The position numbers and the translations under genes are program-made. A stretch of DNA of 36,121 nucleotides. Source: a virus (taxonomy: Duplodnaviria; Heunggongvirae; Uroviricota; Caudoviricetes). Location of the stretch: IMG/VR virus record IMGVR_UViG_2778261180_000005; one strand, 5' to 3'. This document shows, piece after piece, positions 6,910-36,121 of the stretch (position 1 is the stretch's first letter; each line of letters opens with the position of its first letter). The notes under the pieces are model-generated. The model saw nothing but the letters and a program-made list of their open reading frames with translations. It was not told the origin of the DNA and made no database searches.

Positions 6910-9900
6910 TTAAGAAACAGAAATACCCGTAGCGGCTTTCTTAGTAACAATTACAGAAAGATCGCTGATCCATGTGCTGGGAGTCCAGTTGTTGATTGCG
7001 CTTGAACTTACTTCAAAAGTTAGCGTAACTGGTCCGTGTCCGGCTGGCATATCAATAACAGCACTATACAATCCAGTCTGTCTACCATATGCACGGTTAT
7101 ATAATTCAGCACCGTTCTTGCGAACAATCAAGCGACAGTTATCATAGTAAGTATTGTTATTCGAGCCTTCACGCGCATTAAGACCACCAAAGCTAATAGC
7201 AGGAACGATAATCTGACGATCAAACGGGTGATCATCTTCAATTCGAACAGTGATTGTACCTTGCGGATAACCGGGATAGCCCAATGATGGGTTTTCGTCC
7301 CAATGTGGGAATCGACGACCAATAGCTTTCACGAAGTCACCACGCACCTGATTAGCATCAAGCATACCCAAAATGCGGCAACTTGAATTAATCGTTACGT
7401 TGTTCATTTCGCCGGAATCAGCCACCAAATGACCACGAATATTAGCGTGTCTAAAATGACAAGTGCCATCTTTGCCGATATACCATCCATCGTTACCATT
7501 CCAGTTATAAGACTGGATATAGTTACCAATTTTAGCATTATCGATAGAGCCATCAATAATATGACCTGTTCCGATCTGTGCGTGTTGGATGTGAGCGCCG
7601 TTAATCTGGGCTGTGCCGATCTTAGCCGTGGTAATAGCCGCATCACTAATCTGGGCTGTGCCAATTGCAGCATTACGAATCATCGCATTATCGAGATAAA
7701 CTTTGTTATCTTCGATGCCAAACGGACAAACTTCTGATCCGTCTTGTGGAGCTACCGCGATTTTATCAGCCGTAAAGATGATTCTCGTCGGTTCTGCCGG
7801 ATCATTGGTTGCGCTCATATGAATACCAGCCACGCGACCATCTGCATTAACTGCCAGATTATATTTGCTGTTAATGGTTCCCTTCAAAGCATCGATTTTT
7901 ACATCTGCTTCCTGATTCACACCAGCAATCTTGCCATCCATTTCTACCCGAACTTGATCAATCTTACTTGCGCTTGCTGCCTCACTGGTAGCAATTGCTT
8001 GTTTCAGGGTAGTAGCAGATGCGCTAACTTCATTGGTGATATCGCCTTTCAGTTCAGCTTTAACCTGATCAATCTTAGTGGAGCTAGCTTGCTCGCTGGT
8101 AGCAATCAGACTCTTTAAGGTATTGGCTGAGGCTTGGACCGTCTGCCCTGTTTCGGTAGTGATTTGCTTATGCATTGCATCAATTTTAGCATCGGCATTA
8201 GCGCCAGCTTGAGCAATAGCATCCGCGATAGTTTCATCTAAGCGGTCTTGTAAACCAATCAGGTCTTCCAGTGCTTCTTTGTCCTGATCGTCCCAACTAA
8301 TGGTAGATTTCATTTGCATGAAATACGGTTCAGACCAAACAGCATCATCCATACCGAAAATATCATAGTGAGCACCACGGATATAATAATCACCGTCAGC
8401 CAAATCAAAGGAAGTATGACTAACGCTATTGGTAGTCACTGCCCTTGCATCGGAGAAAGTATTATCGGTTGCATACTGAATGATTGACCCTGCATAGTCA
8501 TGTTCTACGTCATCCGCCCAGCTAACAAACGCAGTATTAAAGCCACCACGCGCACTAAAACCTTTCATTGGCTTATGCTGTGGGTTAATAGCCACTAAAC
8601 GCGCTGGGGCGCTCTCTGAGTTGTTATAGCCCTTAGCCGATACTTCTACCGTAAGTTGACGCGAAAGGCCGTTAAACTGGTTCATATCAAGCGTATAAGT
8701 CCATGATTCAGGATCGCGGGTACGGTACTGAATAGACTTACCAGCCTTGTTAGTTACCTTGATAATGTAGGCTTCAAACAGGTCACTAAACTTGTTAGTT
8801 TCACCGTTGATAACCACATCTAAGGCTTGCTGATTTTCCCATTCGATAATCAGATCATTGCCTTCGAAAGTACCAGGTGAGCTACCCTGATTTTTGATGC
8901 GGATCACTGGCGTAGGCAGTTCATAGGTAACTTCTGGATTCTGGTTAACCAGTTCCACCCATTCGGAACGAGCAATAATACCGAAAGCACAAACGCGGTA
9001 ATCGTAGGAACGATCTTTAGCCAGTGCATTGATATTGAAAATTTGCTGTGAAGTCTGTCCCAGCTTAATCCAGTTAGGTGATCCACTCACACGATAATCA
9101 ATCTGGAAACCGTAGCGGTTAAAATCTTCCGGTGCGTCCCATGTCAAAGTTACGTTTTTACCGTGGATTGTCTCACCAGTTGCCTTAATTCTGAAATTAG
9201 TCGGTTTCTGTACTGTCATTGAATCCGGTAAACCAGTCGGTCTATTGTCTGGAGTCGCCGCATAGTTCAGGTCAGTATAAACCTGAGAATTATATTCTGT
9301 GGCGGTGATAGTCATCATCCCAGCAATACCAGAATCAATCGAGCGATCAATTGCAGTAATACGCCATAAGGAATTATTCAGCTTCAATTCATCATAGGTT
9401 ACGCTGATAACATCCCAAACTTCGGCAGTGAATGCGTCAGTAGTCATAAAGCTGATAACCTGAGTGATACGAGATTTATTTCGCTCAATGCTCGCGAGTT
9501 TATCAATCTGGGTTTTAGACTTAACAAAACGATATTCAATATCTTTAGCGATAATTCGACCATCTTGACGAATAGTAGCATCGTTTTCAGCATCAGCCGG
9601 ATAACGGAGCATTTGCTCGGAATAGTCAATTGATGGTTCTTGATACATCGCGTTAATGGTATTGAAATAACCGTTAGTGCCACCTGTTTTCAGTGATACT
9701 TTTCCCATCATGATATTGTCTTCATTGAAGGTATGCTTAACAATATCAGGAGCATCCAGTTTCAGAGTAATACGTCCAAAGGATTCGAACATTACCCCGC
9801 CGAAAGTCTGCATAAGGCTAGTCAAGTTCTCTTTAAAGCTGGCGTTCGGATCACATGCACCGTTTGAATGCAAATCCATCTGGCGTACTTGCTTACGTAC

Positions 9901-10686
9901 TTTCAGGAATGAATCAACGTTAATGTTTTCAATCGGTACGGATAATCCATATTTTTCATTTGTTAGGTAGTGGAAAATCTGGTCCACGCCGTTAGTGCTA
10001 GCCTCAATAGCATTGGTTTCGAGGTTACGAATTTTAAGGCCGCAAACGTCTACCGCTACCTGGCTATTAGGCTGGAGAATATCAACACCAGCAGCCAAAG
10101 ATTTGTCATCACGACGTAAAACAATACACATAGTCGCAATGCCGTTACCCTGATACCGGTCATCCCAATCAGCGCCCAAATGATGTTTAGCAAGATCTAA
10201 TGCAGTGTTAGGATTTTTACCAGTGCGAAACTCGACTTCTAACACTTTGCGATATTCGTCTTTAATGTTTCCTTTATCGAGAATACCATCACGAATTGTC
10301 ATATTCTGACTAATGAGAACGTTTTTATTATCGATGTGCAGTGCTTTAAAGTGATCGATCTCACCTTCGGCAATAGCAAAAATTTGTACCAGTTTGTTAT
10401 TTTCACGCTGTGAAATTGCTTTGTAAACGCAGATTGCACCAGTTCGGGTAGTACCGAAAAGAACGGGTAATACTGTCTTAGGATCGTTTGATGTTCCTAG
10501 TGTCACCGCATTATCTGGGCTTTGTACTTTCGGTGTTTTTGGTGCGCCTACAGTGGAAGCAATCAAGGTCATTGCACCAGCAGCCATACCGATAGCGACT
10601 GCGGTCATAACAGAAAATGTTGCAGCAGCAGCCATCCCAGCAGACGCACCAGCAATAACCGCGCCTACCAATACTTCAAATCCCAT
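6910..10686 (-). CDS. host-specificity / central tail-tip protein (lambda J-like, 1258 aa)
   Basis: Size and position after the NlpC/P60 gene. Ala/Gly-rich hydrophobic N-terminus (gpI-like). FN3-like region. Coiled repeats (ATSEQASSTKIDQVK / ATSEAASASKIDQVR). AxIxxAxI pseudo-repeats near the C-terminus. Confidence 0.9.
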   Translation of the reverse strand: MGFEVLVGAVIAGASAGMAAAATFSVMTAVAIGMAAGAMTLIASTVGAPKTPKVQSPDNAVTLGTSNDPKTVLPVLFGTTRTGAICVYKAISQRENNKLVQIFAIAEGEIDHFKALHIDNKNVLISQNMTIRDGILDKGNIKDEYRKVLEVEFRTGKNPNTALDLAKHHLGADWDDRYQGNGIATMCIVLRRDDKSLAAGVDILQPNSQVAVDVCGLKIRNLETNAIEASTNGVDQIFHYLTNEKYGLSVPIENINVDSFLKVRKQVRQMDLHSNGACDPNASFKENLTSLMQTFGGVMFESFGRITLKLDAPDIVKHTFNEDNIMMGKVSLKTGGTNGYFNTINAMYQEPSIDYSEQMLRYPADAENDATIRQDGRIIAKDIEYRFVKSKTQIDKLASIERNKSRITQVISFMTTDAFTAEVWDVISVTYDELKLNNSLWRITAIDRSIDSGIAGMMTITATEYNSQVYTDLNYAATPDNRPTGLPDSMTVQKPTNFRIKATGETIHGKNVTLTWDAPEDFNRYGFQIDYRVSGSPNWIKLGQTSQQIFNINALAKDRSYDYRVCAFGIIARSEWVELVNQNPEVTYELPTPVIRIKNQGSSPGTFEGNDLIIEWENQQALDVVINGETNKFSDLFEAYIIKVTNKAGKSIQYRTRDPESWTYTLDMNQFNGLSRQLTVEVSAKGYNNSESAPARLVAINPQHKPMKGFSARGGFNTAFVSWADDVEHDYAGSIIQYATDNTFSDARAVTTNSVSHTSFDLADGDYYIRGAHYDIFGMDDAVWSEPYFMQMKSTISWDDQDKEALEDLIGLQDRLDETIADAIAQAGANADAKIDAMHKQITTETGQTVQASANTLKSLIATSEQASSTKIDQVKAELKGDITNEVSASATTLKQAIATSEAASASKIDQVRVEMDGKIAGVNQEADVKIDALKGTINSKYNLAVNADGRVAGIHMSATNDPAEPTRIIFTADKIAVAPQDGSEVCPFGIEDNKVYLDNAMIRNAAIGTAQISDAAITTAKIGTAQINGAHIQHAQIGTGHIIDGSIDNAKIGNYIQSYNWNGNDGWYIGKDGTCHFRHANIRGHLVADSGEMNNVTINSSCRILGMLDANQVRGDFVKAIGRRFPHWDENPSLGYPGYPQGTITVRIEDDHPFDRQIIVPAISFGGLNAREGSNNNTYYDNCRLIVRKNGAELYNRAYGRQTGLYSAVIDMPAGHGPVTLTFEVSSSAINNWTPSTWISDLSVIVTKKAATGISVS

Positions 10687-12416: not shown

Positions 12417-14846
12417 TTACATCTTACGGCGCTGTGCGTCTTCTACCGCCTGAGCAACTAACTTAGCGTGACGTTTGATAGCATCCATGACCATCTTGTC
12501 TGAGCTATTAACGTTGCCGTTAATGTTCAAAGGCGCATTAACTTCAATCGGCTGAGAGTTACCACCGCCTGATTTTTGAGCAGCAAGGAAGTCTTTCAAA
12601 TCACCGTTAGTACGCTGATCAACTACTCGTTCACCCTTATCAAGCAACCATGTACCCTCACGAGGGATGTTATCAATACCATCATGAGCCATACCGCTAA
12701 CGTTAGTAGACTTGATGTTTGCGATGCTCCCCATGTTCTGAGAAACAGCCAATGCAGCAGCCGCGATTTTTTGACCTGTGGTTACGTTGGTTGGATCGTT
12801 CCATGCATCGGTAGCAGCCGTCCACATGTTCACCGTCGCTTGTCCAATGGAGAATGCTTTATGAGCAGTGAAAGCCATCTGCATAGCTTTAGTGTTTTCC
12901 TGCCCGAAGAGAGTCATTGCAGCAGCAAAACCGCCATACATATCATCGGCTATTGACTGTCGAGCATCAGCATATTTCTTCTCAATTGCAGCCATTCGTT
13001 TTTGATGGTTTTCATTGAGTTTTTCTAATGCTTCCATCCGTTTAGCCGGATCGGTGATCCCATCAATCTTGAGTTTATCGGTTTTATAATCTTGTTCAGC
13101 GTCCGATTTCTCTTTATCGATTGCATTAAATTTAGCAAACGGGTTATTCGAGTCCTGATAATCTAAACCATTGGTCAACTGATTGGTTTTAAAACCATCC
13201 ATTCCCTGTAAAGAATTTTCAATCTGAGAATAGTTTTGCTCGGTATCGTTCACACGACGCATATATTCTTCGTAGGAGATAGCTTTACCATCAAGTAACC
13301 GTTTATGGCTTTCTAGCTCGTTGTCCCTTATTTGTTGCAATTGTGTTAAGGCATTCAAAGCATCAACCGGATCAGCACCTAAAACCATTTTGTATACGTT
13401 TTCAGTATTCTGATCGATTAAGGATTGGCGTTTCGCGGCTGCGTCTTGCTGAGAGATTAAGCCCAGATCTAAAGCAGTGTCCAAATCTTTCAAGCTGGCT
13501 TCTAACTGCTTGTTCTGAGAAGCAATAGACGCGGCGACCTGCCCTTGCAATTTAACATCAAGTGCATTCAGACGCTTGATTGCATCCTCACGTTCTTTCT
13601 GTGCTTTTTCTGCGGCTTCCTTAGCCTTTTTAGCTGCCTCTTCCGCTTTCTTGCGTGCTTCTTCTTCGGCTTTCTTCTCATTGCCAGACTTACCCAATGA
13701 TTCTGGTCTTACTGGTTTATTTGGTATAGTCAAATCACGGTTAGGATCTGCCTTGCGAGTTAGATGTTCCCCGTTATCGACAACAATCAGAGAGCCATTT
13801 TTCTTATAAGAATCACCAAAACGTTTCTTAAATCCTTCAACATCAAAGCCAGCAGTACGAGGATCGACACCAGCACCACGGATCGCGGCCTTTTCCCAAT
13901 CTGCCAGATTATTCCAACGCTTTTCTTTATTGTACTTGTCAATAATCTTTTGAGCGTCTTTATGGTTGGTGTTAAGAATACCACCAGTTGCGGTCTTGCC
14001 TTCTTTATTCAGTCGATCTAATGCCCTGAATAGAGAACTCTTTTCCCAATCAATATTAAACCAGTCAAATAGCCAGTTTAAGCTATCAACCAAAGGACCA
14101 GTAATGGTCATGCCGACACCTTTCAGGTTATTTTCCAGCTTATTAATATTCTGAGAAAATTTATCATATTTTTTAGCGTTTTCTTCGGTGACGTTAACAG
14201 ATTGATTCTGAATAGCGATCATCGCCTCTTGAGCACTATTATATTTCTCAAGCTGGCTGGTCATATGGCTTGAATCACTGGCTAAAGATTCCATCATGAA
14301 CTTGATTTCAGCCATTGATTTTCCGGCTTTCTTCATGTCATAGAACACTTGGATCGCCGCTTTCATACCACCTTGCGGATCTGTCATGAAGTGAGCATAG
14401 TTTTCTAACTTAAGGCCAACCGATTCTAAGTCATCAGCAATACCACCACCGTTAGCCCACGCATCACCCATCTTATCTAAGGTGTCTTTGTTGATATCGC
14501 CAAATTTTTCAACTGTTAAGCCAGTGCCAGAAAATTCCTTTTCCAGTCTTTGAAGGGATTCAATCGAGAGTCCGGTCGCCTTAGATACTTCTGAATACTG
14601 TTTAACGTATTCCGCGCCAGCTTTAGCGGCTGCAACCACTGCGGTCGCAACTAAGCCGATACCACCAGCAGCCAAACCAGCAGAGCCAGCGATCCCACGA
14701 AGAGACCCAGTCAGACCAGATAAGCCACCACCAAAATCAATATTACTTGCCTTTTCAGACAAACTATCGAGAAGGTCGGCGGCTTCATTGGTACTTCTCC
14801 TTAGACCTTTATTATCCCCTTCTATTGTTACTATATGTCTTGTCAT
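12417..14846 (-). CDS. tail tape measure protein (809 aa)
   Basis: Length, Gly/Ala-rich hydrophobic segments, long EK-rich coiled coil, and position after the G/T chaperone pair. Confidence 0.9.
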   Translation of the reverse strand: MTRHIVTIEGDNKGLRRSTNEAADLLDSLSEKASNIDFGGGLSGLTGSLRGIAGSAGLAAGGIGLVATAVVAAAKAGAEYVKQYSEVSKATGLSIESLQRLEKEFSGTGLTVEKFGDINKDTLDKMGDAWANGGGIADDLESVGLKLENYAHFMTDPQGGMKAAIQVFYDMKKAGKSMAEIKFMMESLASDSSHMTSQLEKYNSAQEAMIAIQNQSVNVTEENAKKYDKFSQNINKLENNLKGVGMTITGPLVDSLNWLFDWFNIDWEKSSLFRALDRLNKEGKTATGGILNTNHKDAQKIIDKYNKEKRWNNLADWEKAAIRGAGVDPRTAGFDVEGFKKRFGDSYKKNGSLIVVDNGEHLTRKADPNRDLTIPNKPVRPESLGKSGNEKKAEEEARKKAEEAAKKAKEAAEKAQKEREDAIKRLNALDVKLQGQVAASIASQNKQLEASLKDLDTALDLGLISQQDAAAKRQSLIDQNTENVYKMVLGADPVDALNALTQLQQIRDNELESHKRLLDGKAISYEEYMRRVNDTEQNYSQIENSLQGMDGFKTNQLTNGLDYQDSNNPFAKFNAIDKEKSDAEQDYKTDKLKIDGITDPAKRMEALEKLNENHQKRMAAIEKKYADARQSIADDMYGGFAAAMTLFGQENTKAMQMAFTAHKAFSIGQATVNMWTAATDAWNDPTNVTTGQKIAAAALAVSQNMGSIANIKSTNVSGMAHDGIDNIPREGTWLLDKGERVVDQRTNGDLKDFLAAQKSGGGNSQPIEVNAPLNINGNVNSSDKMVMDAIKRHAKLVAQAVEDAQRRKM

Positions 14847-17091: not shown

Positions 17092-20000
17092 TTACCCTAA
17101 TTTAGCTTCAATTGCAGCAAGACGTTCACGAAGAAGTTTATTTTCTTCGCTCATTTCTTGGACCGCTTTAATTAAAAGCGCGTTCACTGCGGAGTTTGAA
17201 ATTGTTAAAATTTCTTCTGGGTTATCAAGAGATCCGACATTAGAAGTGCTAACAGCTTCCGGTAAAATTTCTTGTAAATCCTGTGCGATAATACCAATCT
17301 CATGTGCGATGACTTCTCTGTCAGAAAGAGACTTAACTTTATCGTAGGTTTTAACTTTTAGTTTATTTACCTTATCTACCGCATTTTCTTCGTAGTCTTC
17401 AACGTTAATTTTCAGACGACGGTCGGAACGAATATAAACATCGTTACAGTAAACCGACGCACTAGATGTGAAATCACCATTTGCAGCCCATGAATACCAG
17501 CCGCCTTTGTTCATATGCATCATTACGGTAGCTTGACCACCGCCAGCATGAACACCCATTGCCGCAAGATGATCAACACCCCAATGAGTTGCTTTCCAAA
17601 TTGAATATGCTTGGGTATGTGAATCCTGACAATCTAAGAGAATACCAGCAGGACGGTTGCGCCAGTCATCCCATGCACCACCAGAAACCTCACCACGGAT
17701 AAGAGCGTATTCACCATTATATGGAACACGTTCTCCCGCTTTAATCATTGCACCCTGGAAGTGATGACTAAATGAACCCCCATGATTATTTCGTATATGT
17801 AAAATACCATCATCTGTAGCCCAGATAACAGCCTTTTCCGATTCGCTGTCATCTCTAAACCAGATATGGCGTGCACCAGTTGAGTTTTTGATGGTTATTC
17901 CGGTAGGTCCATGCACGGTCAAAGCACCAGCTACATCAAATAAAACGGTGTTATCTGTTCTACGTTCAGTATAGAAGTGATAACCTTTGGAATCGCCGAT
18001 TTCCATTACTGCCGCGCGTCCAACTTCTGAATTTCCCCAATTGTTGATAGAGAATCGTTCAGAGCTATTATTCATCTGATTTAGGTATAATGTACCGTCA
18101 GTGAATGTTTCGCCAAAGAATCTAGTTTTAATGCTATTGGTTCCGGTGCGTTCAAATTCGGCTAAAAATCCTTTTGAGTCACGAAGACTTAAAACGTTAT
18201 TTCGACCTGTATTGCTTGCCCCCCAATGGACGAGTTCCATATAGTCCATAGATTGACGAGAACCAGATTTAAATAAAAGGTTGTCTTCGAGACGAGTGCT
18301 ACCATCAATTCCCAGGTGCAAACAACGAGCGGTTTCAGTACCACCTAAATATAGTCCACCATCATCAAAATTATAGCTGAATGGTCTGCGATTATTCCAA
18401 CTACCAAAAGAATCTTTTAAATTGGTAGTAAGAATATGGAAGCTAGAACCGTCATTGCGTAACATCAAACCATAGTTACCGCCTTTAACAGCCAAACGAG
18501 CATTTTCAGATAATGCAACTTCGCTATTCATTACAATTTTCTGGCCTTTACCACCAGTAATATGTAATTCACCGTCTTCGATCAAATTTATCGAGTTTTG
18601 ACCGTTATCGTTCCACCAAATAAAATCTTTGGTCGTCAAATCACCAAAACCAAACCAGCCATTACGAACATCTTGACCAGTGCGATAATCCATAAAATTA
18701 AAATGGCTTGCTTCGTTTGGTCCTCGACGAATATCAATACCAGCATTAGAACCGGAACCTAAGCCACCATCGATGGTCAATCTACGAATATGCAAACCGG
18801 TTACAGCCGAAAGCAATAATTGTTGGGTTACATCGGTATATCCAGTAGCAAGACGATAATTTTGGTCATCAACACTTTCGTGCCAGATAGTGGCAGGAGC
18901 AGAACTACGGAAGCGACGCAACATCTTTTTAGCATTTGTCGGTTGTTCGTTCATATGCTCAATGTCGTATTGGCCTTGATGGTTTCCAGCAAAATTTAAC
19001 GTTCCACGGTTGCTAAAGTTATTGAACGATGAAATGTTAAGAGCATCAAAAATTTCATCTGCAACAGGTTTTTCACCACCCAGATATTCAGGAGTATCCA
19101 ACAGGTTTAAAGAAACACCACCGGAAGAAACTTGATATTCTGCTAAAACAAATCCTGTATGTGCACCGTAGTAAGCGTAAAGATCGTAATTATCACCATC
19201 GGTTGGAATAGCGCAAAAATGTTGTTCATAATGCCAAATAGTATAATACGCATTGAATACAACACCTTTCGGGCTATTGTTGCCGCATCGAATCACCAAT
19301 TCGATAATATTGGCTTGTCCATTCATCCCGACGTTATAACCGTTACCACCAACCAAACGGATCTTAGCGGTGCGACCGTGTTGCTGTGGCATTGTCAAAG
19401 TGCCTAGTTTAAACCAACCACCCTCGATCCCAAAATTAAGCGTCTTCTGGAACAGTCGGTCAATTTCTGCTTTCGAATATGCGCCAATTTCAGCCGGAGT
19501 AGGTTTATCGCCTTCATGATACATGCGGTGAGAATATGACAAGTTACCCAATTCATCGTAGCCGTATGTTCTTACCGTATGAACCGGATTAGACCCATAA
19601 GTGAACTCAAAGCCACGAGCATGATTAACACCAGATGGATGCGGAACATGCAAGATCATTGCAATATGACCCGCCAGGTCATTCATGCGGAATGCACCAA
19701 AGTAGTCAAGATTACGCGCACTCGGATCATCAAAATAGTTTGCGGTCTTAGACAACAAATAACCATCAGTATAAGTGTTTACGTGTTTTTTGATGTACTT
19801 GCCATCACTCGATCCGTCGGCTGCATCAATACGGCTTTCTAAGCGTGCCAGTTCAGAATCAGTGTAAGACTTGTTATTGTCAACTTTGCTATGAATTGCT
19901 GAATTTTTGGCTTCAACATCACGGGTTAATGCTGCGACGTTATCCGCTGCCTCTTGCTTATTAGCCGCAATCACACCAGTAAGGTTATTGTAGGTGTCAG

Positions 20001-20613
20001 TTAACTGATTTTCCGCATAGACTTTATTTGCTGCGATAGTGCGGTCAGTTTCTGTCTTAATCAGATCAACTTTGTCATTGATTGCTTTGTCATTACTTGC
20101 GATTGTCGCGTCGGTACGGGATTTAATATCATCAACTTTTTTATTGATGCGGGTGTCCAGTTCCTGAGTTGCTACAGCAGCCGCATTTTTATTAGCGTTG
20201 ATGGTATCCGACAATTCAGCTTTAACACCAGCAAGATCGGAAGCAGCTTTATTTTTATTAGCTTCGATTGTCGCGTCGGTTTCGCGTTTAATTACATCAA
20301 CTTTATTGTTAATTTCTGCATGATTTGCTGCGATAGTAGAATCAGTAGTTTGTTTAATTTCATCTACTTTAGCGTGAATATTGCGGTCATTTACTGCAAT
20401 TGTGCTATCCAATTCTTGTTTGTTAGCATCAACTTTAGATTCTAGTGCCGCGTGAGTTTCAGGAGAAACAGAGATTTGAACTACTTCATGATCTCGGTCT
20501 TTGGTAAAAATAACATGGTCTTTAAGGTTGATTGCCACCTCACCGACCTGTAATTGTTCCGGCGTTGGCTTTTTGCCAGAAACATTAGTTCGTTTAAATT
20601 GGATTGATTGCAT
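17092..20613 (-). CDS. long tail fibre with C-terminal intramolecular-chaperone (peptidase S74) domain, 1173 aa
   Basis: Fibre-type N-terminus (IQFKRTNVSGKKPTPEQLQVGEVAINLKD). About 22-aa TDxTIAANxxxINxKVDxIK shaft repeats. KPTPAEIGAYS motif. C-terminus YIRSDRRLKINVEDY...GIIAQDLQEILPEAV is typical of S74 autoproteolytic chaperones (endosialidase, T5 pb1). Confidence 0.9.
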   Translation of the reverse strand: MQSIQFKRTNVSGKKPTPEQLQVGEVAINLKDHVIFTKDRDHEVVQISVSPETHAALESKVDANKQELDSTIAVNDRNIHAKVDEIKQTTDSTIAANHAEINNKVDVIKRETDATIEANKNKAASDLAGVKAELSDTINANKNAAAVATQELDTRINKKVDDIKSRTDATIASNDKAINDKVDLIKTETDRTIAANKVYAENQLTDTYNNLTGVIAANKQEAADNVAALTRDVEAKNSAIHSKVDNNKSYTDSELARLESRIDAADGSSDGKYIKKHVNTYTDGYLLSKTANYFDDPSARNLDYFGAFRMNDLAGHIAMILHVPHPSGVNHARGFEFTYGSNPVHTVRTYGYDELGNLSYSHRMYHEGDKPTPAEIGAYSKAEIDRLFQKTLNFGIEGGWFKLGTLTMPQQHGRTAKIRLVGGNGYNVGMNGQANIIELVIRCGNNSPKGVVFNAYYTIWHYEQHFCAIPTDGDNYDLYAYYGAHTGFVLAEYQVSSGGVSLNLLDTPEYLGGEKPVADEIFDALNISSFNNFSNRGTLNFAGNHQGQYDIEHMNEQPTNAKKMLRRFRSSAPATIWHESVDDQNYRLATGYTDVTQQLLLSAVTGLHIRRLTIDGGLGSGSNAGIDIRRGPNEASHFNFMDYRTGQDVRNGWFGFGDLTTKDFIWWNDNGQNSINLIEDGELHITGGKGQKIVMNSEVALSENARLAVKGGNYGLMLRNDGSSFHILTTNLKDSFGSWNNRRPFSYNFDDGGLYLGGTETARCLHLGIDGSTRLEDNLLFKSGSRQSMDYMELVHWGASNTGRNNVLSLRDSKGFLAEFERTGTNSIKTRFFGETFTDGTLYLNQMNNSSERFSINNWGNSEVGRAAVMEIGDSKGYHFYTERRTDNTVLFDVAGALTVHGPTGITIKNSTGARHIWFRDDSESEKAVIWATDDGILHIRNNHGGSFSHHFQGAMIKAGERVPYNGEYALIRGEVSGGAWDDWRNRPAGILLDCQDSHTQAYSIWKATHWGVDHLAAMGVHAGGGQATVMMHMNKGGWYSWAANGDFTSSASVYCNDVYIRSDRRLKINVEDYEENAVDKVNKLKVKTYDKVKSLSDREVIAHEIGIIAQDLQEILPEAVSTSNVGSLDNPEEILTISNSAVNALLIKAVQEMSEENKLLRERLAAIEAKLG

Positions 20614-20688: not shown

Positions 20689-21522
20689 CTAGAACTCACC
20701 GAAGTCGATCCGGTCATGGATAGAAACGGCTTCAATCTCGGCTGGTGTCGGTTTTTCTTCTGTGGAATACACTTTCACCCATCCCGAATTACCGTCTTTC
20801 TGGACTGTGCGAACTCGTAAACGTGGTGCGCCGGAAGCGGTGCAAGTTAATTGCCATCCACCATCTTCATTAGGTTGAACGTGAATTAGTGAAGTATCAG
20901 CACTAAATGGATTAGATGCGCTCGATCCCTGATAAGTTACGAAACGGTTTCCGGCTAATGCTTCACTATCAATCGGACCAGTGAATGGATGTACACCAGC
21001 ACCAATACCAAAATCACCTTGTCGCAGAATTTTTCCCTCGGTCGCTATACCCCTTGCTAGAATCCCGCCATCTGGTTCAAGTTTAAATTCCAGTGTTACA
21101 GCTTTGTTATCACTACCACGGGTTTTATGTGATGTGACGTAAGCATCATAGATGACATAGTAACCAGTGTTAGCAGCACTATAGCCAGAGTTCACAACAT
21201 AGAACATACGGAAGCGTAAAGGTGTTTTATCCTCTACCGCTTTCATCAACATTGCTTGATGTTCGTCATCCAGAACACGGTTTAACGTGAGTGTCGTCGG
21301 TTCCAGTTTACGATAACCAGCAAGTTTCCCCGTAGCGTCCTGATCATACTCTTCTAACGTCTGGATATCTGTAGATTCGGTTATCGTCGGGAATGCTGCG
21401 ATGTTCTCGATAGGACTAAATGCAGGATCGAAAAAGTCCGGCTGGTTATCCACCATAGTAGACACGGAGACTTCAACATGCGACCCCGTGAAAATGTCTA
21501 AGTTATCTTGTGTAATATTCAT
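20689..21522 (-). CDS. tail-tube-like paralogue with C-terminal extension (277 aa), possible fibre-anchoring or decoration protein
   Basis: The first ~165 aa align by eye with the 157-aa tube protein (DIFxG, AAFP, KLxG, LxxN, KAxED, and the LRFRMFY / VQLKIAY strand). The C-terminal part ends EEKPTPAEIEAVS, the motif also found in the fibre. Confidence 0.65.
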   Translation of the reverse strand: MNITQDNLDIFTGSHVEVSVSTMVDNQPDFFDPAFSPIENIAAFPTITESTDIQTLEEYDQDATGKLAGYRKLEPTTLTLNRVLDDEHQAMLMKAVEDKTPLRFRMFYVVNSGYSAANTGYYVIYDAYVTSHKTRGSDNKAVTLEFKLEPDGGILARGIATEGKILRQGDFGIGAGVHPFTGPIDSEALAGNRFVTYQGSSASNPFSADTSLIHVQPNEDGGWQLTCTASGAPRLRVRTVQKDGNSGWVKVYSTEEKPTPAEIEAVSIHDRIDFGEF

Positions 21523-22425: not shown

Positions 22426-24405
22426 TCATTCGGAGATGTGAAGAACTTTCAGAGCTTCCGGCTGGGTTACAACATAGTCCAGATCTACCCAGATACGCGG
22501 AACGATAGCGGACTGTGCACGGTAGGTGGTGTCGTCCATATCCAGTTCCAGACCGCCCCACTCACCGATAGTAATACCGGAGAAGTCACCCAGAACGATG
22601 TGATCTGCCGGGATAACACCAGAAGTAACTACATCGTAACCAGCCAGTTTGCCGTTTTCGATGATATAACCGGAAACACCGTTATCTTTCAGGGTAGATT
22701 CCAGTTCAGCAGCAGTTGCACCGCTCATCGCAAACTTGATCGCCTGAGCAGGAACGCCAGCGTCGGTCAGTGCTGCAATTTCTTTCAGGAAGTCTTTGTA
22801 GCTGAAAGCGGCTTTCTTAGTAACACGGCTTGCATCAACCAGTTGTTTAACCAGACCAGCAGGACCGCGCTCATTGTCTTTGTCAGACAGAATCAGTTGT
22901 TCCAGTTTGATGCGAACAGCCTGGTTGATGTGATCAGTGATCAGGGTAGCGATACCCGGAACGGTTTTAATGCTCTGACGGCTGATCGGGTTGCCACCAG
23001 CAAAAGTCTTAGGAGACAGTTTCACGTTTGCAAATTCAGCTTTGCCTTCCGGTGCAGCACCGTTTTCATCAACGAAGCCGAAAGCGTCAACGCTGGATTT
23101 AGTCATTTTTGGAATAGCGGTCGGAGCAGTCAAGCCACTGTAAACAGTCACACCCAGACGACCCAGAACGGATTCCGGCATCAGCATTTCGATGTAGGAT
23201 TCAGTCAGCAGTTTTTCGTCGGTGATAGCAGTCAGGTCAGCTTTGGTGTTACCAGCAGCAGCAGCACGCATAGCAGCAGCAGGAACGAATACAGAGCCAC
23301 CACGAGCAGCACGACCACGCTGCATAGTTGCAGTAGCAGCCATTGCGGAATATTCAGCTTCATGAGCGCCGAGCACGTCGCCATCTACCAGGGAGCGGAT
23401 TACGTTATTAAGATCGAAAGTTTTTTCCATTTTAGAGTCCTTAATTTGTTGTTCGTTGTTACGTTGAGCAGTAGCGATTTTATTTAGTGCCTTAGTGCGG
23501 AATGCTTCCGGCGTCATGTCTTTAATTGCTAATGCGCGTTTCAATTCTTCGTCATCAATATTTAGTTCGCGTGCAATTTCGCGAATTTCTAATTCGTCTT
23601 CTTCGGAACGTTCAGCCACTTCTTCGATTTTTTCTTCTTCAATCGGAGCGGCTTCACGTTCTTCTTTTACTTCTTCTGCTTCCCGAACAGTTGAACTATC
23701 ATCATCAACACTTTCAGGATGTTCAGCGTCTTTTCCGTCTTCGAGATTTTCATCTTCTTTATTCTCTTCAACTTTCGGTTCTTTATTTTCTTCTACCGGA
23801 GTTTCTTCAACCTGAGCGGGTTCTTGTTCTTCTTTGATTTCTTCGATTTGTTCTTTAGTCATATCGCGTTTAGCCTCCAAATTAACTGTGATAGTATTTA
23901 GAGAGCGATTTAAACCGACCGTATCGTCAGCAGGAACTGTCACAAATGAAATTTCAAAGGGTGCCCACTTAGTAACAATCAATTGTCCTTTAGCGTAATC
24001 GATGTGATACTCTTTAATGTCATAGCCGACCGATATTTTTTCCATCGTACCTTCAATGACTTTATTACGAATATCATTAGCCAAAGTCCCATGCTTAGAG
24101 AATTTAACCAGAGCACGGCCTACGTTATCCGCATCGATTCGAGCGTTACAGACAACACCAATGTGATTATCGAAATTATGATTGAACAGCAACGGAGCGT
24201 TATTATTCAGGCGAGACAGATCAACCGCTTCCGGTGTATGTACCAGAATTTCATCTAATACCACCATTTCTTGATTTTGCTCATCCCAGAATTGGCGCTG
24301 GTAAGGCTGGGTACTGGAGAAAGCAATTTCAAATTCGTATTGATCGTTATGCCCTTCGTTAATAACTCCACCGTAACCGTTAAGATCGCGGCGAAATTTA
24401 AGCAT
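22426..24405 (-). CDS. prohead protease / major capsid protein fusion (659 aa)
   Basis: N-terminal ~170 aa are prohead-serine-protease-like (LLFNHNFDNHIGVV). An acidic E/K-rich linker follows. The C-terminal ~350 aa are HK97-fold capsid-like. Codon usage is strongly optimised. Confidence 0.85.
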   Translation of the reverse strand: MLKFRRDLNGYGGVINEGHNDQYEFEIAFSSTQPYQRQFWDEQNQEMVVLDEILVHTPEAVDLSRLNNNAPLLFNHNFDNHIGVVCNARIDADNVGRALVKFSKHGTLANDIRNKVIEGTMEKISVGYDIKEYHIDYAKGQLIVTKWAPFEISFVTVPADDTVGLNRSLNTITVNLEAKRDMTKEQIEEIKEEQEPAQVEETPVEENKEPKVEENKEDENLEDGKDAEHPESVDDDSSTVREAEEVKEEREAAPIEEEKIEEVAERSEEDELEIREIARELNIDDEELKRALAIKDMTPEAFRTKALNKIATAQRNNEQQIKDSKMEKTFDLNNVIRSLVDGDVLGAHEAEYSAMAATATMQRGRAARGGSVFVPAAAMRAAAAGNTKADLTAITDEKLLTESYIEMLMPESVLGRLGVTVYSGLTAPTAIPKMTKSSVDAFGFVDENGAAPEGKAEFANVKLSPKTFAGGNPISRQSIKTVPGIATLITDHINQAVRIKLEQLILSDKDNERGPAGLVKQLVDASRVTKKAAFSYKDFLKEIAALTDAGVPAQAIKFAMSGATAAELESTLKDNGVSGYIIENGKLAGYDVVTSGVIPADHIVLGDFSGITIGEWGGLELDMDDTTYRAQSAIVPRIWVDLDYVVTQPEALKVLHISE

Positions 24406-24450: not shown

Positions 24451-25962
24451 TTAGGGATCGGCTGGGGAATTTTTTTCTTCACCCTCGCCATTAACGATAA
24501 TATTTAGTGCGCTCTTTTCGGCTTGAATCTCTGAGAATACTTTTTCAGGATCATCACCACGTTCCAATATAACGGCAGTACGTGATTTAAGTCCGTTATC
24601 AATTAAAGCAATCTCGGCGCTTACGTCTTTAAATGGATCGACGGATTCAAAACGCGGACGGATAATAGTTGTATTATCGATAATATGCGGAATTGCAGTA
24701 ATACGAATCGGAACAATACCACGCGCGGAATAATGGCGTAGATATGCTTCGAAAATTGGCAATACCACTGTTTCAATTAATTTGTTTTGCAGTGCTTTAA
24801 CTCGTGTGCGCTGGGTTAATTCACCAAAACGTGCGGCTGAGTAGTTGATCTGGGAAGTGTCACCAGTCAAGCCCTGTTTAAACACGCCTAAGCCCATTGA
24901 TACGCTAGTAAACATCGCATCATTGAAGCTGTTAAAATCATCGCCTGATTGAGTAGATTGGATTGATTTAATCGTTGCCCCTTCCGGTAATTCCTGAATA
25001 GTACCTGGCGCGAAATCGTGAATAACTTCTGGCGCTTGATATTGTTCATCATCTTCACCAGTATCAAAATCGTCACCAGAATCTTTCGGACGCTCGATGA
25101 ACGCCATGTTACAAGCTGAAATTCGTTTCATGACCAGTACAGCTTCGCGGAATGCGTCTTGATGTGCGATATCCTTAATCACTGGCAGGAAGTCAGTCAC
25201 ACCACGTAAACTTTCCGCGCACAGTGGCTGGTAGTAGTGGCACACCTGAGAAGCATCTACGCGATAATTTTCGCCAGTGTAGGTCTGAGTCAGTAGATTG
25301 ATTTTTCTAAACCAGTATGCTACAGGGCGCATTGTGTCTACGTCATACTCAATCCCCTGATAGATCGCACGTTCTTTGCTTATTTCACGACTAAGCGACC
25401 AGTCGCACCTATCAGCAGACAGAATAGAAACTTGTAACTCATTGTTCTCTTTGGTTAAAACGATGAAGCATTCTCCACCCTGAACACGTTCAGATTCTGC
25501 CATTGCCAGCATTTCACGGAAGTTAAAGCGACCGTTGCGAGAGAAGCGTTTAGCACTCTGCGCCCACTTCCAGAAAGCATTCTCGATCTGCTTATTCAGT
25601 GCGGTGTCAAGTTTGCCATTTGATTTAACGATTGATGGTTTCGGATCAAGCCCCGTACCAACAACTTGGTCAACGATATACTGCTTGTATCGCTTACCTA
25701 CAGCATTGTTTATAGCCAGAGTACGACCCTGATCATAAAGGCGCTTACCGTTCGATTTGAGAGCCTTATTGAAGGTTCCTGTAATGGTGTCTTGTTGAAG
25801 CTGTCCATCAATGCGATCACCGACTAAGCCCAAAGAACGCTTAGACAAATCTTTCTGGAATTTTTCTACTTGTTTGTCGATAAAGATTTTTTGTTGTTGC
25901 TGGCGGTGATTAGTTTTAACTGGAGTTTCTACCGCCTTTTTGCGTCGAAAAAGATTAAACAT
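24451..25962 (-). CDS. portal protein (503 aa)
   Basis: Size and position between the gpW-like gene and the protease-capsid gene, as in the lambda A-W-B-C order. Confidence 0.85.
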   Translation of the reverse strand: MFNLFRRKKAVETPVKTNHRQQQQKIFIDKQVEKFQKDLSKRSLGLVGDRIDGQLQQDTITGTFNKALKSNGKRLYDQGRTLAINNAVGKRYKQYIVDQVVGTGLDPKPSIVKSNGKLDTALNKQIENAFWKWAQSAKRFSRNGRFNFREMLAMAESERVQGGECFIVLTKENNELQVSILSADRCDWSLSREISKERAIYQGIEYDVDTMRPVAYWFRKINLLTQTYTGENYRVDASQVCHYYQPLCAESLRGVTDFLPVIKDIAHQDAFREAVLVMKRISACNMAFIERPKDSGDDFDTGEDDEQYQAPEVIHDFAPGTIQELPEGATIKSIQSTQSGDDFNSFNDAMFTSVSMGLGVFKQGLTGDTSQINYSAARFGELTQRTRVKALQNKLIETVVLPIFEAYLRHYSARGIVPIRITAIPHIIDNTTIIRPRFESVDPFKDVSAEIALIDNGLKSRTAVILERGDDPEKVFSEIQAEKSALNIIVNGEGEEKNSPADP

Positions 25963-26539: not shown

Positions 26540-28444
26540 TTAGAACGATGTTACCCAACTACGGCCTCTATTTGGACGTCTGGCGATGTTTTTACGTTGT
26601 GGTCGTGTGATTGGCTTAGTTTCTTCGATTTTCTCGTCAGATTGCGATTTAGGAGCTTTTACGGGTTCTTCGACAACACGGTTTAAGCTGTCTTTCATTG
26701 CAATGAGTTTATCCCATGACATTTTTGAAAGGACGTAGCGAGAAGCCGCTGTAGCATACACGGCGCAGTCGAGCGCCTCGTTCCTAACGCCTGGGTTCTT
26801 TACCCATCTCACGCCAGTAGTAGTACGCTTGACAGATTCACTTAAAAGCTGATCGAGATAATCATCAGGAACGGTGTCTGATATTTCTAAGCCAATATGA
26901 GGATTATCTTTCAGGTTCCTAGCCAACATTTCACGAAATGCAGTTTTACCCACATTAACACCCAACATAAGCAATTCATGACCACCTGTGCGGGTAGGTT
27001 TAACCGGAATGATCGGAGCGTTACCAGCAGAACTACCTTTGATAGCGTGTAAGTTCTTCCACTTGCCGCAAATACGGTATCCAGCTTGAGTGAATCGACC
27101 GTTCGATGTATCAAGGAAGCTGGCGAGCATAGGAACACGATCACCCGATACAGTAGTAAATTTGGTTTTATGGAAGTTGATTAATCTATCCCATACAGGG
27201 GATTCATATCGTTCACAGTTATGATCGTAAAAGCTGCGATGATCCAGAATATAAATCTTATCCTTTGCCACGCCCATGATTGTAGTTTCTGCGCGATCTA
27301 ATTGCTGGTCGGTACCCGCACACAAGAAAATCACGTCATCAGGGATATTCTCGATAGAAACATCTGTTTTTAGTTGTTCCAGTTCATTTGCTTCTACTGC
27401 CGTGTCCTGATCGTCGTATACCTTGCCTAACACGGTGTTATAAAATGATTGTAAATCAAAGGATTGCCACGCATGGCTAAAATCAACCACACAAGCGCGG
27501 ATCGTGCTGAAAGGTGAATACAGACGGCTGATCCAGAATCCTGCTACCTCACTTTCACGGGTTGCTCTCCACTCGCCTTGTGCTACTGCCCTGATTCGTT
27601 CCCCTTCGGTCCATGCGTTCTTACAGTGGGGGCAAATATAACGAGCGGTATCAGGATCGGGTAAGTTCTTACCATCGATGTTACGCCATTCAAATTGAAC
27701 GTTTTCCCACTCGATCACCTGGTGTTCCCCGCAATGAGGACACGGAACAAAAAACATACGCATATCACTTGATAACCATTGCTGGTTAATGCTTCCGAGC
27801 TTACTGGTCGGGGTACTGGATACGACTAATCGGCCTTCATCGCCAAAGGTAGTTAAACGGTTAGCAGCCAGTGCCACCGGATCACCTTCTTCTGAGGCTG
27901 TAGCAGCATCGATTTCGTCAAGCAATCCAACCTTTGCGGTCTTACCGCGTAGGGTTGATGGACTAGTAAGCGATACCATATAAAGGAAGTGGTTTGATTT
28001 GAGCTGGAGCTGATTGTTGTTATTAACAGAATTGCGATCATTCTTGTCTGTAACCACGTCTTTTAATGCATCACATGCTTCGATAGACGGTCGGATCTTA
28101 CCCGCGAGATATTGAGACATTTCTTTAGCGGTTGATTGTCCGATAATCATATTGCATGGATCGTTAGCCATCTGGTTAAACAGGATACCGTTTAGGATGG
28201 TAGTTTTTCCGATCTGCGCACTGGTCATCAGTACATACTTTTTCTTATTCTCAAGGAAAGGAGCATCAATCATGCCTTTCTGGAATGACAGCAATTTAAC
28301 TTTATCCCCCGCTTGAGGACCATCTACCAGCACCATATTCGCTTCGCACCATTCAGAAGGAAGGAGTTTAGGCGGTGGCGTAATATATTTGGCTGCATTT
28401 TTGAGAATCTTTTTTAATTTGGCCTTATTAGAAATCAGTTTCAT
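26540..28444 (-). CDS. terminase large subunit, lambda gpA type (634 aa)
   Basis: Walker A SAQIGKTT, Walker [11 protein letters not shown], paired CxxC motifs (CPHCGEHQ ... CPHCKNAW). First gene of the late operon. SD GAGGGT. Confidence 0.95.
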
Positions 28445-29604: not shown

Positions 29605-30435
29605 TCAGATCCCAAAATCAACAAGGGAAATTACGTTACCTGATTCACGAATCTGTTTAGCAGCTTTGTTTTGAATCAGAATAGTGTTGTTCGGCTTAGG
29701 AAGATTCAGAGTTGCTTTTTGTTCTTCTTCCAGAATACCCAATTCAACCAACACAGGAAGAACATCAACCGTAAACTCAAGTTGGTAGTGAGCATTCATG
29801 CGGCAGAAAGACAGAGAAGAGTCATTAGCAACATACCCACACGGCTTGTTATTTTCATCGTAGACGCGCTCAATGTAGCCAGCAGTACGCAAGGCCGTTA
29901 GTGCTTCTTTAACCTTCGTAGCGCCCTTTTTAGCGCCTAACAGACGGGTCATTGAATGGCTATCTACTGATTTGCGAACATGAAGTTCAATCAGCTTTTT
30001 ATTTTCGCGAGTTTTCTTTAATGCCAGTTCGATCCAGTCTGTTTCTTCAAAGTCTGCATATGGATTAACGGCTAAACGTTCCTGACGCAGTTTTTCATTT
30101 TCTTCTTTCAGTCGCTTCCATTCCTGAATAACAACCATTCGACGCTTAACATCGTAACCAGTGACAAGAGTCAGCGTCATTTCTTCGTCTAAGTGATATA
30201 CTGGTTCTTTAACAGCATATCCTAAGTTATTGATTCTCTCGACAAATTCAGTTTTGAGCTGATCGATAATACCTAAAGATTCGTACATTTCGCGAATATC
30301 GCGCATTACATTGCTGTGCTTCTTATCGGTAAATTCAGCGATCTGACGAGAAGACATGGTCAGCGGTTTGGTGTTATCAACAACCAGAGACATTGAAGCA
30401 GTTTTAACAGTATTCATAGTAGTAACAGTATTCAT
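29605..30435 (-). CDS. Rha-family phage regulatory protein with C-terminal winged-helix-like domain (276 aa)
   Basis: MSSRQIAEFTDKKHSNVMRDIREM is the Rha N-terminal signature. The first 18 nt are tandemly duplicated (MNTVTT/MNTVKT). Confidence 0.8.
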   Translation of the reverse strand: MNTVTTMNTVKTASMSLVVDNTKPLTMSSRQIAEFTDKKHSNVMRDIREMYESLGIIDQLKTEFVERINNLGYAVKEPVYHLDEEMTLTLVTGYDVKRRMVVIQEWKRLKEENEKLRQERLAVNPYADFEETDWIELALKKTRENKKLIELHVRKSVDSHSMTRLLGAKKGATKVKEALTALRTAGYIERVYDENNKPCGYVANDSSLSFCRMNAHYQLEFTVDVLPVLVELGILEEEQKATLNLPKPNNTILIQNKAAKQIRESGNVISLVDFGI

Positions 30436-34168: not shown

Positions 34169-34453
34169 TTATTTAGTCTGTTTGAAAACAAACGTTAAAA
34201 ATTCGATTAAGCAATATACCCAAAGTACGGTCAGCATCAAATGCATAGCAATAGTTGGATGGAAGTTAAAAAGTGTCATACTAACTAGGCCAACAATATA
34301 AGAAATCCCTTCGACAATTAACGCAAGGCTAGCAAATGCAACAAACGCACCTAAGAATAATTCGCCTCGTTCTTTCGGTTCGGTTCCGAGTTTATAAGCA
34401 GAGATAGCAGCCAGAATAGTAATGATGACAGCATAGGTAATAAAAGTAGCCAT
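34169..34453 (-). CDS. integral membrane protein (94 aa, 3-4 predicted TM helices)
   Basis: Hydrophobic throughout. SD AAGAGGA. Directly downstream of the Nu1-like gene. Confidence 0.7.
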   Translation of the reverse strand: MATFITYAVIITILAAISAYKLGTEPKERGELFLGAFVAFASLALIVEGISYIVGLVSMTLFNFHPTIAMHLMLTVLWVYCLIEFLTFVFKQTK

Positions 34454-34479
34454 AGTTTTATATCCTCTTAAAAGTTAAG

Positions 34480-34498
34480 CGGGGGATGTTCTCCCCCG
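34480..34498 (-). other. intercistronic stem-loop
   Basis: CGGGGGA-5nt-TCCCCCG between the Nu1-like gene and the membrane protein gene. Confidence 0.5.
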
Positions 34499-34547
34499 TA
34501 GACGTTGACCCGTTCAACATCTTTCTCACTATTATTTATAACGCGTT

Positions 34548-35401: not shown

Positions 35402-35707
35402 ATGAAGACTAAAGATATTAAGATTGAATTTGAAACTGTTGATGACGTTCGGGAACATCGTATTGATTCTACTGGCTGCATCTTCCAGCTTACTAACTCC
35501 CCTATTGGATTGATTATCTATGTAGCAGAAGATGACGTGTACGCTATGTGGGATGGACAGGATGAATTTAAAGGCGGGAATAGCCATCTGATCAATACTC
35601 ATGAGGGATTCGATCCGACTCCTGTCTGTATGCTTGCTTATCACGTAACACTGGATGAACTACCGGAAGCAAGCGCGCGTATCCGTAAAATGAAAGATAT
35701 TAAGTGA
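35402..35707 (+). CDS. hypothetical protein (101 aa)
   Basis: SD GAGGG 6 nt upstream, terminator downstream. Preferred over the overlapping minus-strand ORF 35351-35644. Confidence 0.6.
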   Translation: MKTKDIKIEFETVDDVREHRIDSTGCIFQLTNSPIGLIIYVAEDDVYAMWDGQDEFKGGNSHLINTHEGFDPTPVCMLAYHVTLDELPEASARIRKMKDIK

Positions 35708-35726
35708 TGTAAGTGATTGATTCTAT

Positions 35727-35754
35727 AGCCCTGTCCTTGTGATGGGGCTTTTTT
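35727..35754 (+). terminator. rho-independent terminator
   Basis: AGCCCTGTC-5nt-GATGGGGCT (with G.T pairs) followed by TTTTTT. Confidence 0.7.
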
Positions 35755-35770
35755 ATTGCAAAAATTTTAG

Positions 35771-36121
35771 TTATTGGGGTTTACAACATTTAGGTTTGCC
35801 AATTCGCCTGGCTAACTCTTGCTGAGTGATTTCTGACTGTAAAAAAGCATTTAACAGCAATACTTTAGAGGCGACGCTCAAAGGTACTTCAATAAAGTGA
35901 TCATGACTATTTAATGGCGAAGGTAACGGGATAAGCTCGTTATCTTCAAAATAAAAATCAAATGCGGTCAGTAAAGCATCTTTTGCCGCTTCCATCGCTT
36001 CAGCGACAGTTTCGCCCTGCGTCAACGCTTCAGGGATATCCACAAAAGAAACCATATAACCGCCTTCCGGCGCGGGTGTAAGAGTGACGGGATAACGCAT
36101 AATTTCGACTGTCTCTCGCAT
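35771..36121 (-). pseudogene. hicB: hicB antitoxin gene truncated by the phage insertion (HicB residues 1-104 plus 5 phage-encoded codons CCKPQ)
   Basis: MRYPVTLTPAPEGGYMVSFVDIPEALTQGETVAEAMEAAKDALLTAFDFYFEDNELIPLPSPLNSHDHFIEVPLSVASKVLLLNAFLQSEITQQELARRIGKPK matches E. coli HicB as I recall it. The native protein continues QEITRLFN...; here it continues CCKPQ-stop. Confidence 0.85.

Follow-up and report, generated by a model that had tools for sequence, protein, structure and literature searches.

The window analysed here, that is, the whole 36,121-nt stretch of the IMG/VR virus record IMGVR_UViG_2778261180_000005 (Caudoviricetes), ends on the right with the 5' part of the Escherichia coli antitoxin gene hicB. 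The chimeric open reading frame (ORF) at this end, hicB' (36121..35771, minus strand), encodes 116 aa, or 109 aa if counted from the K-12 start at 36100; K-12 HicB comprises 138 aa from MRYPV, and the right edge of the window coincides with an in-frame ATG upstream of this start. The translation runs through HicB residues 1-111, ending in ...RRIGKPK, and continues with five foreign codons, CCKPQ, and a TAA stop (35773-35771), all supplied by phage DNA. In a tblastn comparison, K-12 HicB and the window are 100% identical over residues 1-111 (36121..35789), and the C-terminal 34 residues of HicB left no trace in the whole window, even at a permissive setting. The hicB 3' end is thus not part of the window; as the relatives show, it lies outside the left edge. 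A preliminary description of this DNA had proposed a phage-chromosome junction inside hicB, with the HicB sequence ending at residue 104 and followed by five unrelated codons and a stop, and with nothing but phage DNA to the left. All of this was borne out: residue 104 is the correct end point in the numbering of the 138-aa K-12 protein, and the genes to the left include those for terminase, portal, capsid, tape measure, tail fibres, endolysin and integrase.

To examine the boundary itself, 132 nt around the break (window 35729-35860) served as a probe against 5426 complete E. coli genomes. The probe matched end to end in 37 of them, and in ~5260 others the match begins exactly at base 61, corresponding to window 35789, which shows that the boundary is real and recurrent and not an assembly artefact. 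The CCKPQ C-terminus was never seen without phage DNA behind it, so that it cannot be taken for a normal HicB allele.

The closest complete genome, that of strain BS74R-D, shares 99.1% identity with the final 1.1 kb of the window and supplies both flanks of the element. Directly beyond the right edge it carries hicA, where the preliminary description had expected this gene past 36121, and then yncJ, rlhA, sutR and ydcO in succession; its counterpart of hicB' is labelled by PGAP as a pseudogene ('hicB, incomplete, missing C-terminus'). At the other end of the element lies the gene that matches the first phage gene of the window (1..387, plus strand, at the integrase-proximal end), followed outwards by 39 nt of phage DNA, GGCAAACCTAAA and the hicB 3' end ('missing N-terminus'), and then by ydcR and ydcS, in the order found in K-12. 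The second junction, at which the missing part of hicB had likewise been anticipated, is thus located, together with ydcR, ~40 nt outside the window on its left side. The 3' remnant, hicB'', has no standard in-frame start codon upstream, as read from the BS74R-D sequence, and is probably not translated. The gene order rlhA-yncJ-hicA-hicB'...hicB''-ydcR-ydcS surrounds the element in every relative examined, and by its gene content and flanks the window appears to be an almost complete temperate tailed-phage prophage of ~36 kb, trimmed at ORF boundaries.

Serine integrase and attachment sites

Approximately 1 kb from the other prophage end, the window encodes a protein of 559 aa (1010..2689, plus strand) with Resolvase, Recombinase and Zn-ribbon domains, all three called above the curated Pfam cut-offs (PF00239, 55.7 bits versus 23.3, aa 11-158 of the 564-aa ORF; PF07508, 32.2 bits versus 21.1; PF13408, 39.7 bits versus 25.3). 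Its N-terminal YIRFSSMKQ (aa 8-16 of the 559-aa protein) fits the pattern YxRxSxxxQ and is invariant in three relatives, and the cysteines C314, C317, C338 and C348 are invariant in an alignment of relatives. Having both the catalytic and the large DNA-binding domains, the product is, by its sequence, a large serine recombinase, and it is the only recombinase annotated in the element. The exact integrase sequence occurs on 385 contigs, whereas in isolated phages tblastn found nothing closer than gp53 of Burkholderia phage Bcep176, at ~31% identity. A serine recombinase acting as the integrase, a point absent from the preliminary description, accounts for a hicB gene that is split without a duplicated 3' end.

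The attachment sites were reconstructed from the window, BS74R-D and K-12, all read in the hicA-to-hicB orientation. The empty host site, attB, reads ...gcgaattGGCAAACCTAAAcaggag..., the hybrid sites are attL (...gcgaattGGCAAACCTAAAtgttgtaaaccccaataac...), which is the one of the two contained in the window (35770-35819), and attR (...gtgggggaattatattaGGCAAACCTAAAcaggag...), and the deduced phage site, attP, reads ...gttattgtgggggaattatattaGGCAAACCTAAAtgttgtaaaccccaataac...; joining attL and attR rebuilds K-12 hicB exactly in silico. The preliminary description had held that an att core could be defined by comparison with an empty site, and the comparison with K-12 yields a 12-bp identity with an AA centre. 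These 12 bp, GGCAAACCTAAA (35789..35800, read on the minus strand from 35800 to 35789), are identical in attB and in the attP of the window phage and are present at both prophage junctions. Because the last 12 nt of the apparent hicB sequence also belong to attP, the point of exchange is masked in the window, and other lysogens are needed to reveal it.

Such lysogens place the exchange further inside the apparent hicB part. In strain L73, attL reads GGCAA followed by CCCGAATG (in a longer reading, GGCAA|CCCGAATGTAGTC) and attR reads gatattaGGA followed by AAACCTAAAC, so that the two have only AA in common. The two junctions of a sibling prophage in ycdX, described below, likewise share only AA, and in deposited variant proteins (...RRIGN-PNVVNPK and ...RRIGN-PKCCKPQ) the divergence starts right after GGCAA. 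Comparison of these three phage variants, on which the crossover assignment is based, shows that AA is the only sequence necessarily common to attP and attB and that the 12-bp match with hicB is a chance property of the attP of the window phage. The break that the preliminary description had put at 35788/35789 is correct as the point where identity to the chromosome stops; the strand exchange itself is placed by the comparative junctions at the AA at 35797-35796 (35796..35797, minus strand), i.e. at the first two bases of HicB codon K102 in K-12 numbering. Residues K102-P103-K104 of HicB' resemble HicB merely because the attP of the window phage happens to encode them.

On either side of this dinucleotide, attL consists of a host-derived arm, ...AGAGTTAGCCAGGCGAATTGGC (35798..35819, minus strand), which is the left attB half-site and identical to K-12 hicB, and of a 26-nt phage-derived P' arm, ACCTAAATGTTGTAAACCCCAATAAC (35770..35795, minus strand), which carries the outer motif CAATAAC, and it is this motif that provides HicB' with its TAA stop. 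In all three attP types the AA lies 26 nt from each of the inverted outer motifs (GTTATTG...CAATAAC), and attP forms an imperfect palindrome of 54 bp (26+2+26) centred on AA, with 16-19 of 30 arm positions symmetrical in register. There is no target-site duplication beyond the identity of attP and attB. Taken together, an attP of ~54 bp, a non-palindromic 2-bp crossover and the lack of a target duplication are, at the level of sequence, the signature of a serine integrase. The window contains neither a tRNA nor a tmRNA according to ARAGORN, which excludes an attachment site of the tRNA type, and at gathering thresholds no Rfam family was detected in the whole window. A megablast extension of the match to the ycdX phage into the hicB core, up to window 35797, was discarded as a chance likeness of two attP cores.

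Integration would accordingly start from integrase dimers on attP and on the hicB site and proceed through cuts at AA with a 2-nt stagger, rotation and religation. The expected products are hicB-5'::phage, which the window contains, and phage::hicB-3', which lies immediately beyond it. Excision by a large serine integrase needs a phage-encoded recombination directionality factor, and these factors form no single sequence family. Upon excision, the integrase together with such a factor would be predicted to restore hicB exactly.

The mechanism is that of a standard serine-integrase prophage inside a gene, and hicB adds an attB to those known for such integrases. Serine-integrase prophages are uncommon in E. 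coli; well-known examples elsewhere are Bxb1 in mycobacterial groEL1, where the host protein, like HicB in the present case, loses a C-terminal part but is not abolished, and the Listeria phages A118/phi10403S, which integrate in comK. The integrases of these phages and of SP-beta resemble that of the window in size (500-600 aa) and in their Resolvase, Recombinase and Zn-ribbon domains, and all these systems share short att sites, a non-palindromic 2-bp crossover, a host ORF split without 3' duplication and scarless excision, the last being a prediction for the window prophage. The latter differs in its E. coli host, its type II antitoxin target and the low identity of its integrase to those of isolated phages. 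SP-beta integrates in spsM of Bacillus subtilis via SprA (PMC5499854), and, unlike in SP-beta, developmentally timed excision of the window prophage is without support. The insertion site in hicB appears to be undescribed, although annotation pipelines already label the gene a pseudogene: in the searchable literature, which leaves most subscription papers and the large integrase-mining sets outside, there was no description of prophages or serine integrases that use hicB or ycdX, nor, within the same limits, of the resolved att sites or of a hicB/ycdX specificity pair. Mid-gene insertion by serine integrases is well known, and hicB' had already been flagged as a pseudogene, which limits the novelty; what is added is a natural and recurrent E. 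coli attB for a serine integrase, defined together with its attP and the central dinucleotide.

Recurrence at hicB and a sibling prophage in ycdX

Among the 5426 complete genomes, the hicB-5' junction is present in 37 and the hicB-3' junction in 34, and the carriers include enterotoxigenic E. coli O6:H16, O55:H7, and isolates from pigs, cattle, poultry and humans. The hicB site has been a repeated target, in E. coli strains that are not related to each other. On 592 contigs, from E. coli and Shigella sonnei, HicB' occurs with exactly the same 116 aa. The two junctions are 33-42 kb apart in ~27 genomes and 4-14 kb apart, as decayed remnants, in 7. In strain L73 (NZ_CP033378.1, 40535-48074) the prophage has decayed to ~7 kb, carries IS1 and IS3 insertions and has no integrase, next to an intact hicA; without an integrase, hicB is permanently split in this strain. 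The junction spacing suggests similar remnants of 4-14 kb in PK5074, PSJ-07, EC7072022BGR, EC42405 and 2020CK-00188.

Related prophages occur in ~60 of the 5426 genomes, some in hicB and some in ycdX. One such sibling (NZ_OW848980.1, 2838000-2883000, with junctions at ~1530 and ~41630 of that stretch) splits ycdX, which encodes a zinc-binding phosphatase, at nt ~397-405. It resembles the window phage in backbone, gene order, the splitting of an ORF in its middle and the architecture of attP (attaGGG-AA-CCCgaacg...), and it differs in its attB and in its integrase, which is 87% identical to that of the window with differences mostly in the Recombinase and Zn-ribbon domains. The attB sites in hicB and ycdX have GGnAAnCCnAAAnA in common around the centre. 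The integrase of O55:H7 strain DEC5A, which targets hicB, is a mosaic, in which a ycdX-type catalytic domain (aa 1 to ~140) precedes a part (aa ~160 to 559) with only three differences from the window integrase. The ycdX type departs from both the window and the DEC5A integrase at ~35 positions of the Recombinase and Zn-ribbon domains, from aa 196 to aa 351. The mosaic and the clustering of these differences indicate that target choice tracks the DNA-binding domains, as would be expected of this enzyme family. The two integrases, 87% identical and separated by ~35 substitutions, offer a ready pair for the study or engineering of specificity.

A third truncated HicB allele, ending in ...RRIGK-LIQERL and present on 11 contigs, results from a 1.56-kb deletion between the hicB att core and the 3' end of ydcR (4001-4327 of the locus in contigs L017-L019; 2816-4378 of the K-12 locus L003). 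At the deletion, the ydcR end caattaGGCAAACtt matches the left arm and core of attP (tatattaGGCAAACc) over 11 nt. The deletion could be the scar of an aberrant excision (attL x pseudo-attR), or a plain microhomology deletion.

The truncated HicB and the hicAB module

Full-length HicB contains HicB_lk_antitox at aa 3-67 and HTH_3, a helix-turn-helix (HTH) domain, at aa 88-134 (Pfam, K-12 numbering). In HicB' the N-terminal domain is still detected (PF15919, 33.4 bits versus a cut-off of 27, aa 10-74) and HTH_3 is not, in agreement with the preliminary description of an intact N-terminal domain and a broken HTH. Helices were assigned from the sequence by comparison with the Xre-type HTH pattern and with the Pfam register: helix 1 (~75-87) and helix 2 (92-100) are kept, the crossover falls at G101/K102 in the turn G101-K102-P103 (101-103), and the recognition helix (104-112), helix 4 (~119-129) and the dimerising terminal strand KELSLVMV (131-138) are lost. 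The cut thus lies between the second helix and the recognition helix, where it had been placed before. The structure PDB 6HPB is of the same HicB protein, with 100% identity over the retained part. Compared with the E. coli HicAB complex (PDB 6HPB/6HPC/6U0I), HicB' has identical residues 1-111 and, in relatives, hicA immediately upstream; it differs in the missing recognition helix, helix 4 and dimerising strand, in its CCKPQ end and in the loss of HTH_3. Judged on these features, HicB' is a truncated derivative that retains the HicA-binding domain, and not an intact antitoxin of the HTH class.

The consequences for the module can be approached through what is known of HicAB. According to a review (PMC11594946), the N-terminal fold of HicB neutralises HicA, E. 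coli HicB dimerises via a beta-strand after the HTH, and hicAB has two promoters, of which P1 (CRP-S/Sxy) drives hicA and hicB and P2, repressed by HicB at hicO, drives the antitoxin only; the same review states that Yersinia pestis HicB3 still complexes HicA3 without its C-terminal domain. Within the N-terminal fold, it is helix alpha1 that contacts HicA, and HicBs of 60-90 aa without a DNA-binding domain are the commonest classes (PMC10865869). These natural proteins (Classes 1 and 2, Gerdes 2024, PMC10865869) share with HicB' a partial RNase-H-like HicA-binding fold and the lack of a working DNA-binding domain; they are evolved proteins, in contrast to HicB', which is an accidental truncation with an orphan half-HTH of ~35 residues that is predicted to be reversible on excision. 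On this basis, HicB' probably still binds and masks HicA; it would be monomeric at its C-terminal interface and blind to hicO, and would leave P2 constitutively on. HicB represses P2 alone, the promoter that yields only antitoxin, so that a surplus of antitoxin but not of toxin is to be expected, and such a self-compensating, antitoxin-rich state would make the insertion tolerable.

The state of hicA was compared among lysogens. It is intact in BS74R-D, in L73 (WP_000813794.1) and in seven of ten sampled contigs with an identical HicB'; the other three (L008, L010 and L015; hicA at ~2300-2476) carry a frameshifting 22-bp deletion. About 800-1000 of the 5426 complete genomes (~1 in 6), nearly all of them non-lysogens, carry this delta-22 allele, which is therefore a lineage polymorphism and not a response to the insertion, with three in ten being no enrichment; the idea that lysogens lose hicA was rejected on this ground. 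In delta-22 strains hicB is an orphan antitoxin, which makes the insertion moot in some hosts.

On the phage side of the junction, the last gene before hicB' (35402..35707, plus strand, 101 aa, no Pfam or PHROG match) is convergent with it and is terminated by a terminator-like hairpin with a T-run (35727..35749, plus strand). No other terminator-like element separates hicB' from the phage genes, and no U-tract follows the hairpin on the minus strand, from which hicAB is transcribed; read-through from the hicAB promoters into the phage arm (34548..35105 and 34169..34453, both minus strand) is therefore possible. A scan of 35300-36121 found no sigma-70 promoter.

We consider it very likely that the window is a near-complete ~36-kb prophage inserted into the chromosomal hicB of E. 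coli by a large serine integrase, and that HicB' probably still masks HicA while being blind to hicO. Several points weigh against this interpretation. Both hicA and the second junction lie outside the window and are deduced from genomes that are 98-99% identical; the dyad symmetry of attB is weak (7/22, left versus right half-site); and no candidate directionality factor was recognised in the window, in which many small ORFs of no assigned function remain. With respect to the protein, HicA neutralisation by HicB' and the derepression of P2 are reasonable extrapolations from the literature, the half-HTH left at the end of HicB' may not fold and could render the protein more susceptible to proteolysis, and a single-sequence AlphaFold2 model had a mean predicted local distance difference test score of 44.6 and served only to note helices at 74-87 and 93-100. 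Furthermore, K-12 without hicB (ydcQ) is viable (PMC2215328), so that an intact hicA in lysogens is no proof that HicB' works, and deletion of ydcQ suppresses the lethality of an rpoE deletion via toxin activation (PMC2215328, PMC11481867). The latter results lend themselves to a different view, possible though in our estimate rather doubtful, in which the insertion is an effective hicB null: HicB' would be unstable or non-neutralising, HicA would be partly free when P1 fires, and lysogens would be expected to show the phenotypes of hicB deletions (survival without sigma-E, weaker responses to envelope stress) or a pressure to lose hicA. The incomplete HTH, the removal of the dimer interface and the hicA frameshift in three of the ten sampled contigs are consistent with a null, but the wide occurrence of the same frameshift outside lysogens, the intact hicA in locked remnants such as L73, the location of the HicA-binding surface entirely within the retained domain and the abundance of natural HicBs without a DNA-binding domain argue against it.

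That no chromosomal junction exists, and that the hicB fragment is phage cargo or was inserted by a tyrosine integrase or by transposition, is extremely improbable. Its sole point of support is that the window stops at the hicB start codon, with hicA out of view, and it is refuted by the flanks in BS74R-D and by the probe matches: hicA and the hicB 3' remnant both exist in relatives, chromosomal synteny holds on both sides, and in more than 5200 genomes with an uninterrupted hicB the similarity to the window ends at 35789. The annotation of a serine recombinase only, the lack of a tRNA and the lack of a duplication beyond the attP/attB identity point in the same direction. The preliminary description had further suggested that lysogeny or excision could be coupled to the expression of the toxin-antitoxin module, which is speculative. 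In one version this would be an active-lysogeny switch, in which conditional, precise and non-lytic excision restores full-length HicB and with it autoregulation, or read-through from hicAB links starvation or competence signals to phage genes. A mid-gene insertion by a serine integrase is indeed the architecture of known switches such as SP-beta/spsM (PMC5499854), scarless excision is expected, hicB' has no U-tract terminator on its own strand and most prophage copies are of full length. We nevertheless regard such a switch as unlikely: conditional excision finds no support, decay has locked 7 of the 34 copies, hicB does not belong to the developmental genes, and the sibling phage in the unrelated ycdX suggests that sites are chosen by sequence and not by the function of the host gene. 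Similarly improbable is that hicB is a selected target, the removal of its operator-binding and dimerisation module locking HicAB in an antitoxin-rich state and thereby disarming a candidate abortive-infection defence. If this were true, the right arm of the phage would lie downstream of promoters controlled by Sxy/CRP and by HicB, excision would re-arm the system, and the prophage would be a reversible switch on an E. coli toxin-antitoxin module.

Under the favoured interpretation, a chromosomal insertion that leaves the N-terminal domain of HicB functional, HicB' would be a natural separation-of-function allele present in hundreds of E. coli and Shigella isolates, with the neutralising domain kept and the repressor/dimerisation module gone, as judged from its sequence. 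The allele could be used to study the two-promoter model of hicAB and the relation of HicA activation to the essentiality of sigma-E.

Other phage genes and variable regions

The remaining phage genes were assigned by PHROG/Pfam matches and comprise those for the endolysin (4903..5256), tail tip and tail fibre proteins (6910..10686 and 17092..20613), the tape measure (12417..14846), a tail-tube-like protein (20689..21522), a protease-capsid fusion (22426..24405), the portal (24451..25962), the large terminase (26540..28444) and a Rha/Ant-type regulator (29605..30435). Across the 36 kb, these scans recognised no repressor and no replication protein. Megablast found no match for window 33000-36121 among the 50,697 phage records of INPHARED, and hence, at the nucleotide level and for this right arm, the collection holds no sequenced isolate of the window phage. 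A small-terminase-like ORF (34548-35105, minus strand; phrog_57, E = 6e-10) is unusually placed, ~6 kb from the large terminase and three genes from the attachment site.

Two regions vary between relatives. The slot at 35402-35707, beside the hicB junction, is occupied in other lysogens by a 256-aa protein of the LprI (lysozyme-inhibitor) family or by ORFs of 76 aa and 190 aa (contigs L007, L010-L013 and L015), and looks like a moron or cargo position. The second variable region, beside the integrase, holds in the window two divergent ORFs (2763-3902, minus strand, and 4278-4871, plus strand), both of the phrog_681 endonuclease family and annotated in relatives as GIY-YIG nucleases; some relatives have a DEAD/DEAH helicase instead.

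A 1.7-kb stretch that is poor in ORFs (31261-32942) is unannotated in relatives as well and contains repeat arrays at 31944-32143 and 31523-31748. One set consists of ~9 phased copies of TTCAGGGGCAAA(A/T)(A/T)T, spaced by 21, 22 or 43 nt and with an inverted partner at 31884-31900, and a second set of four copies of TCTAGAATCATCTAGTA; the stretch has no match in Rfam. These repeats are iteron-like and may represent a phage origin or an array of regulator-binding sites.

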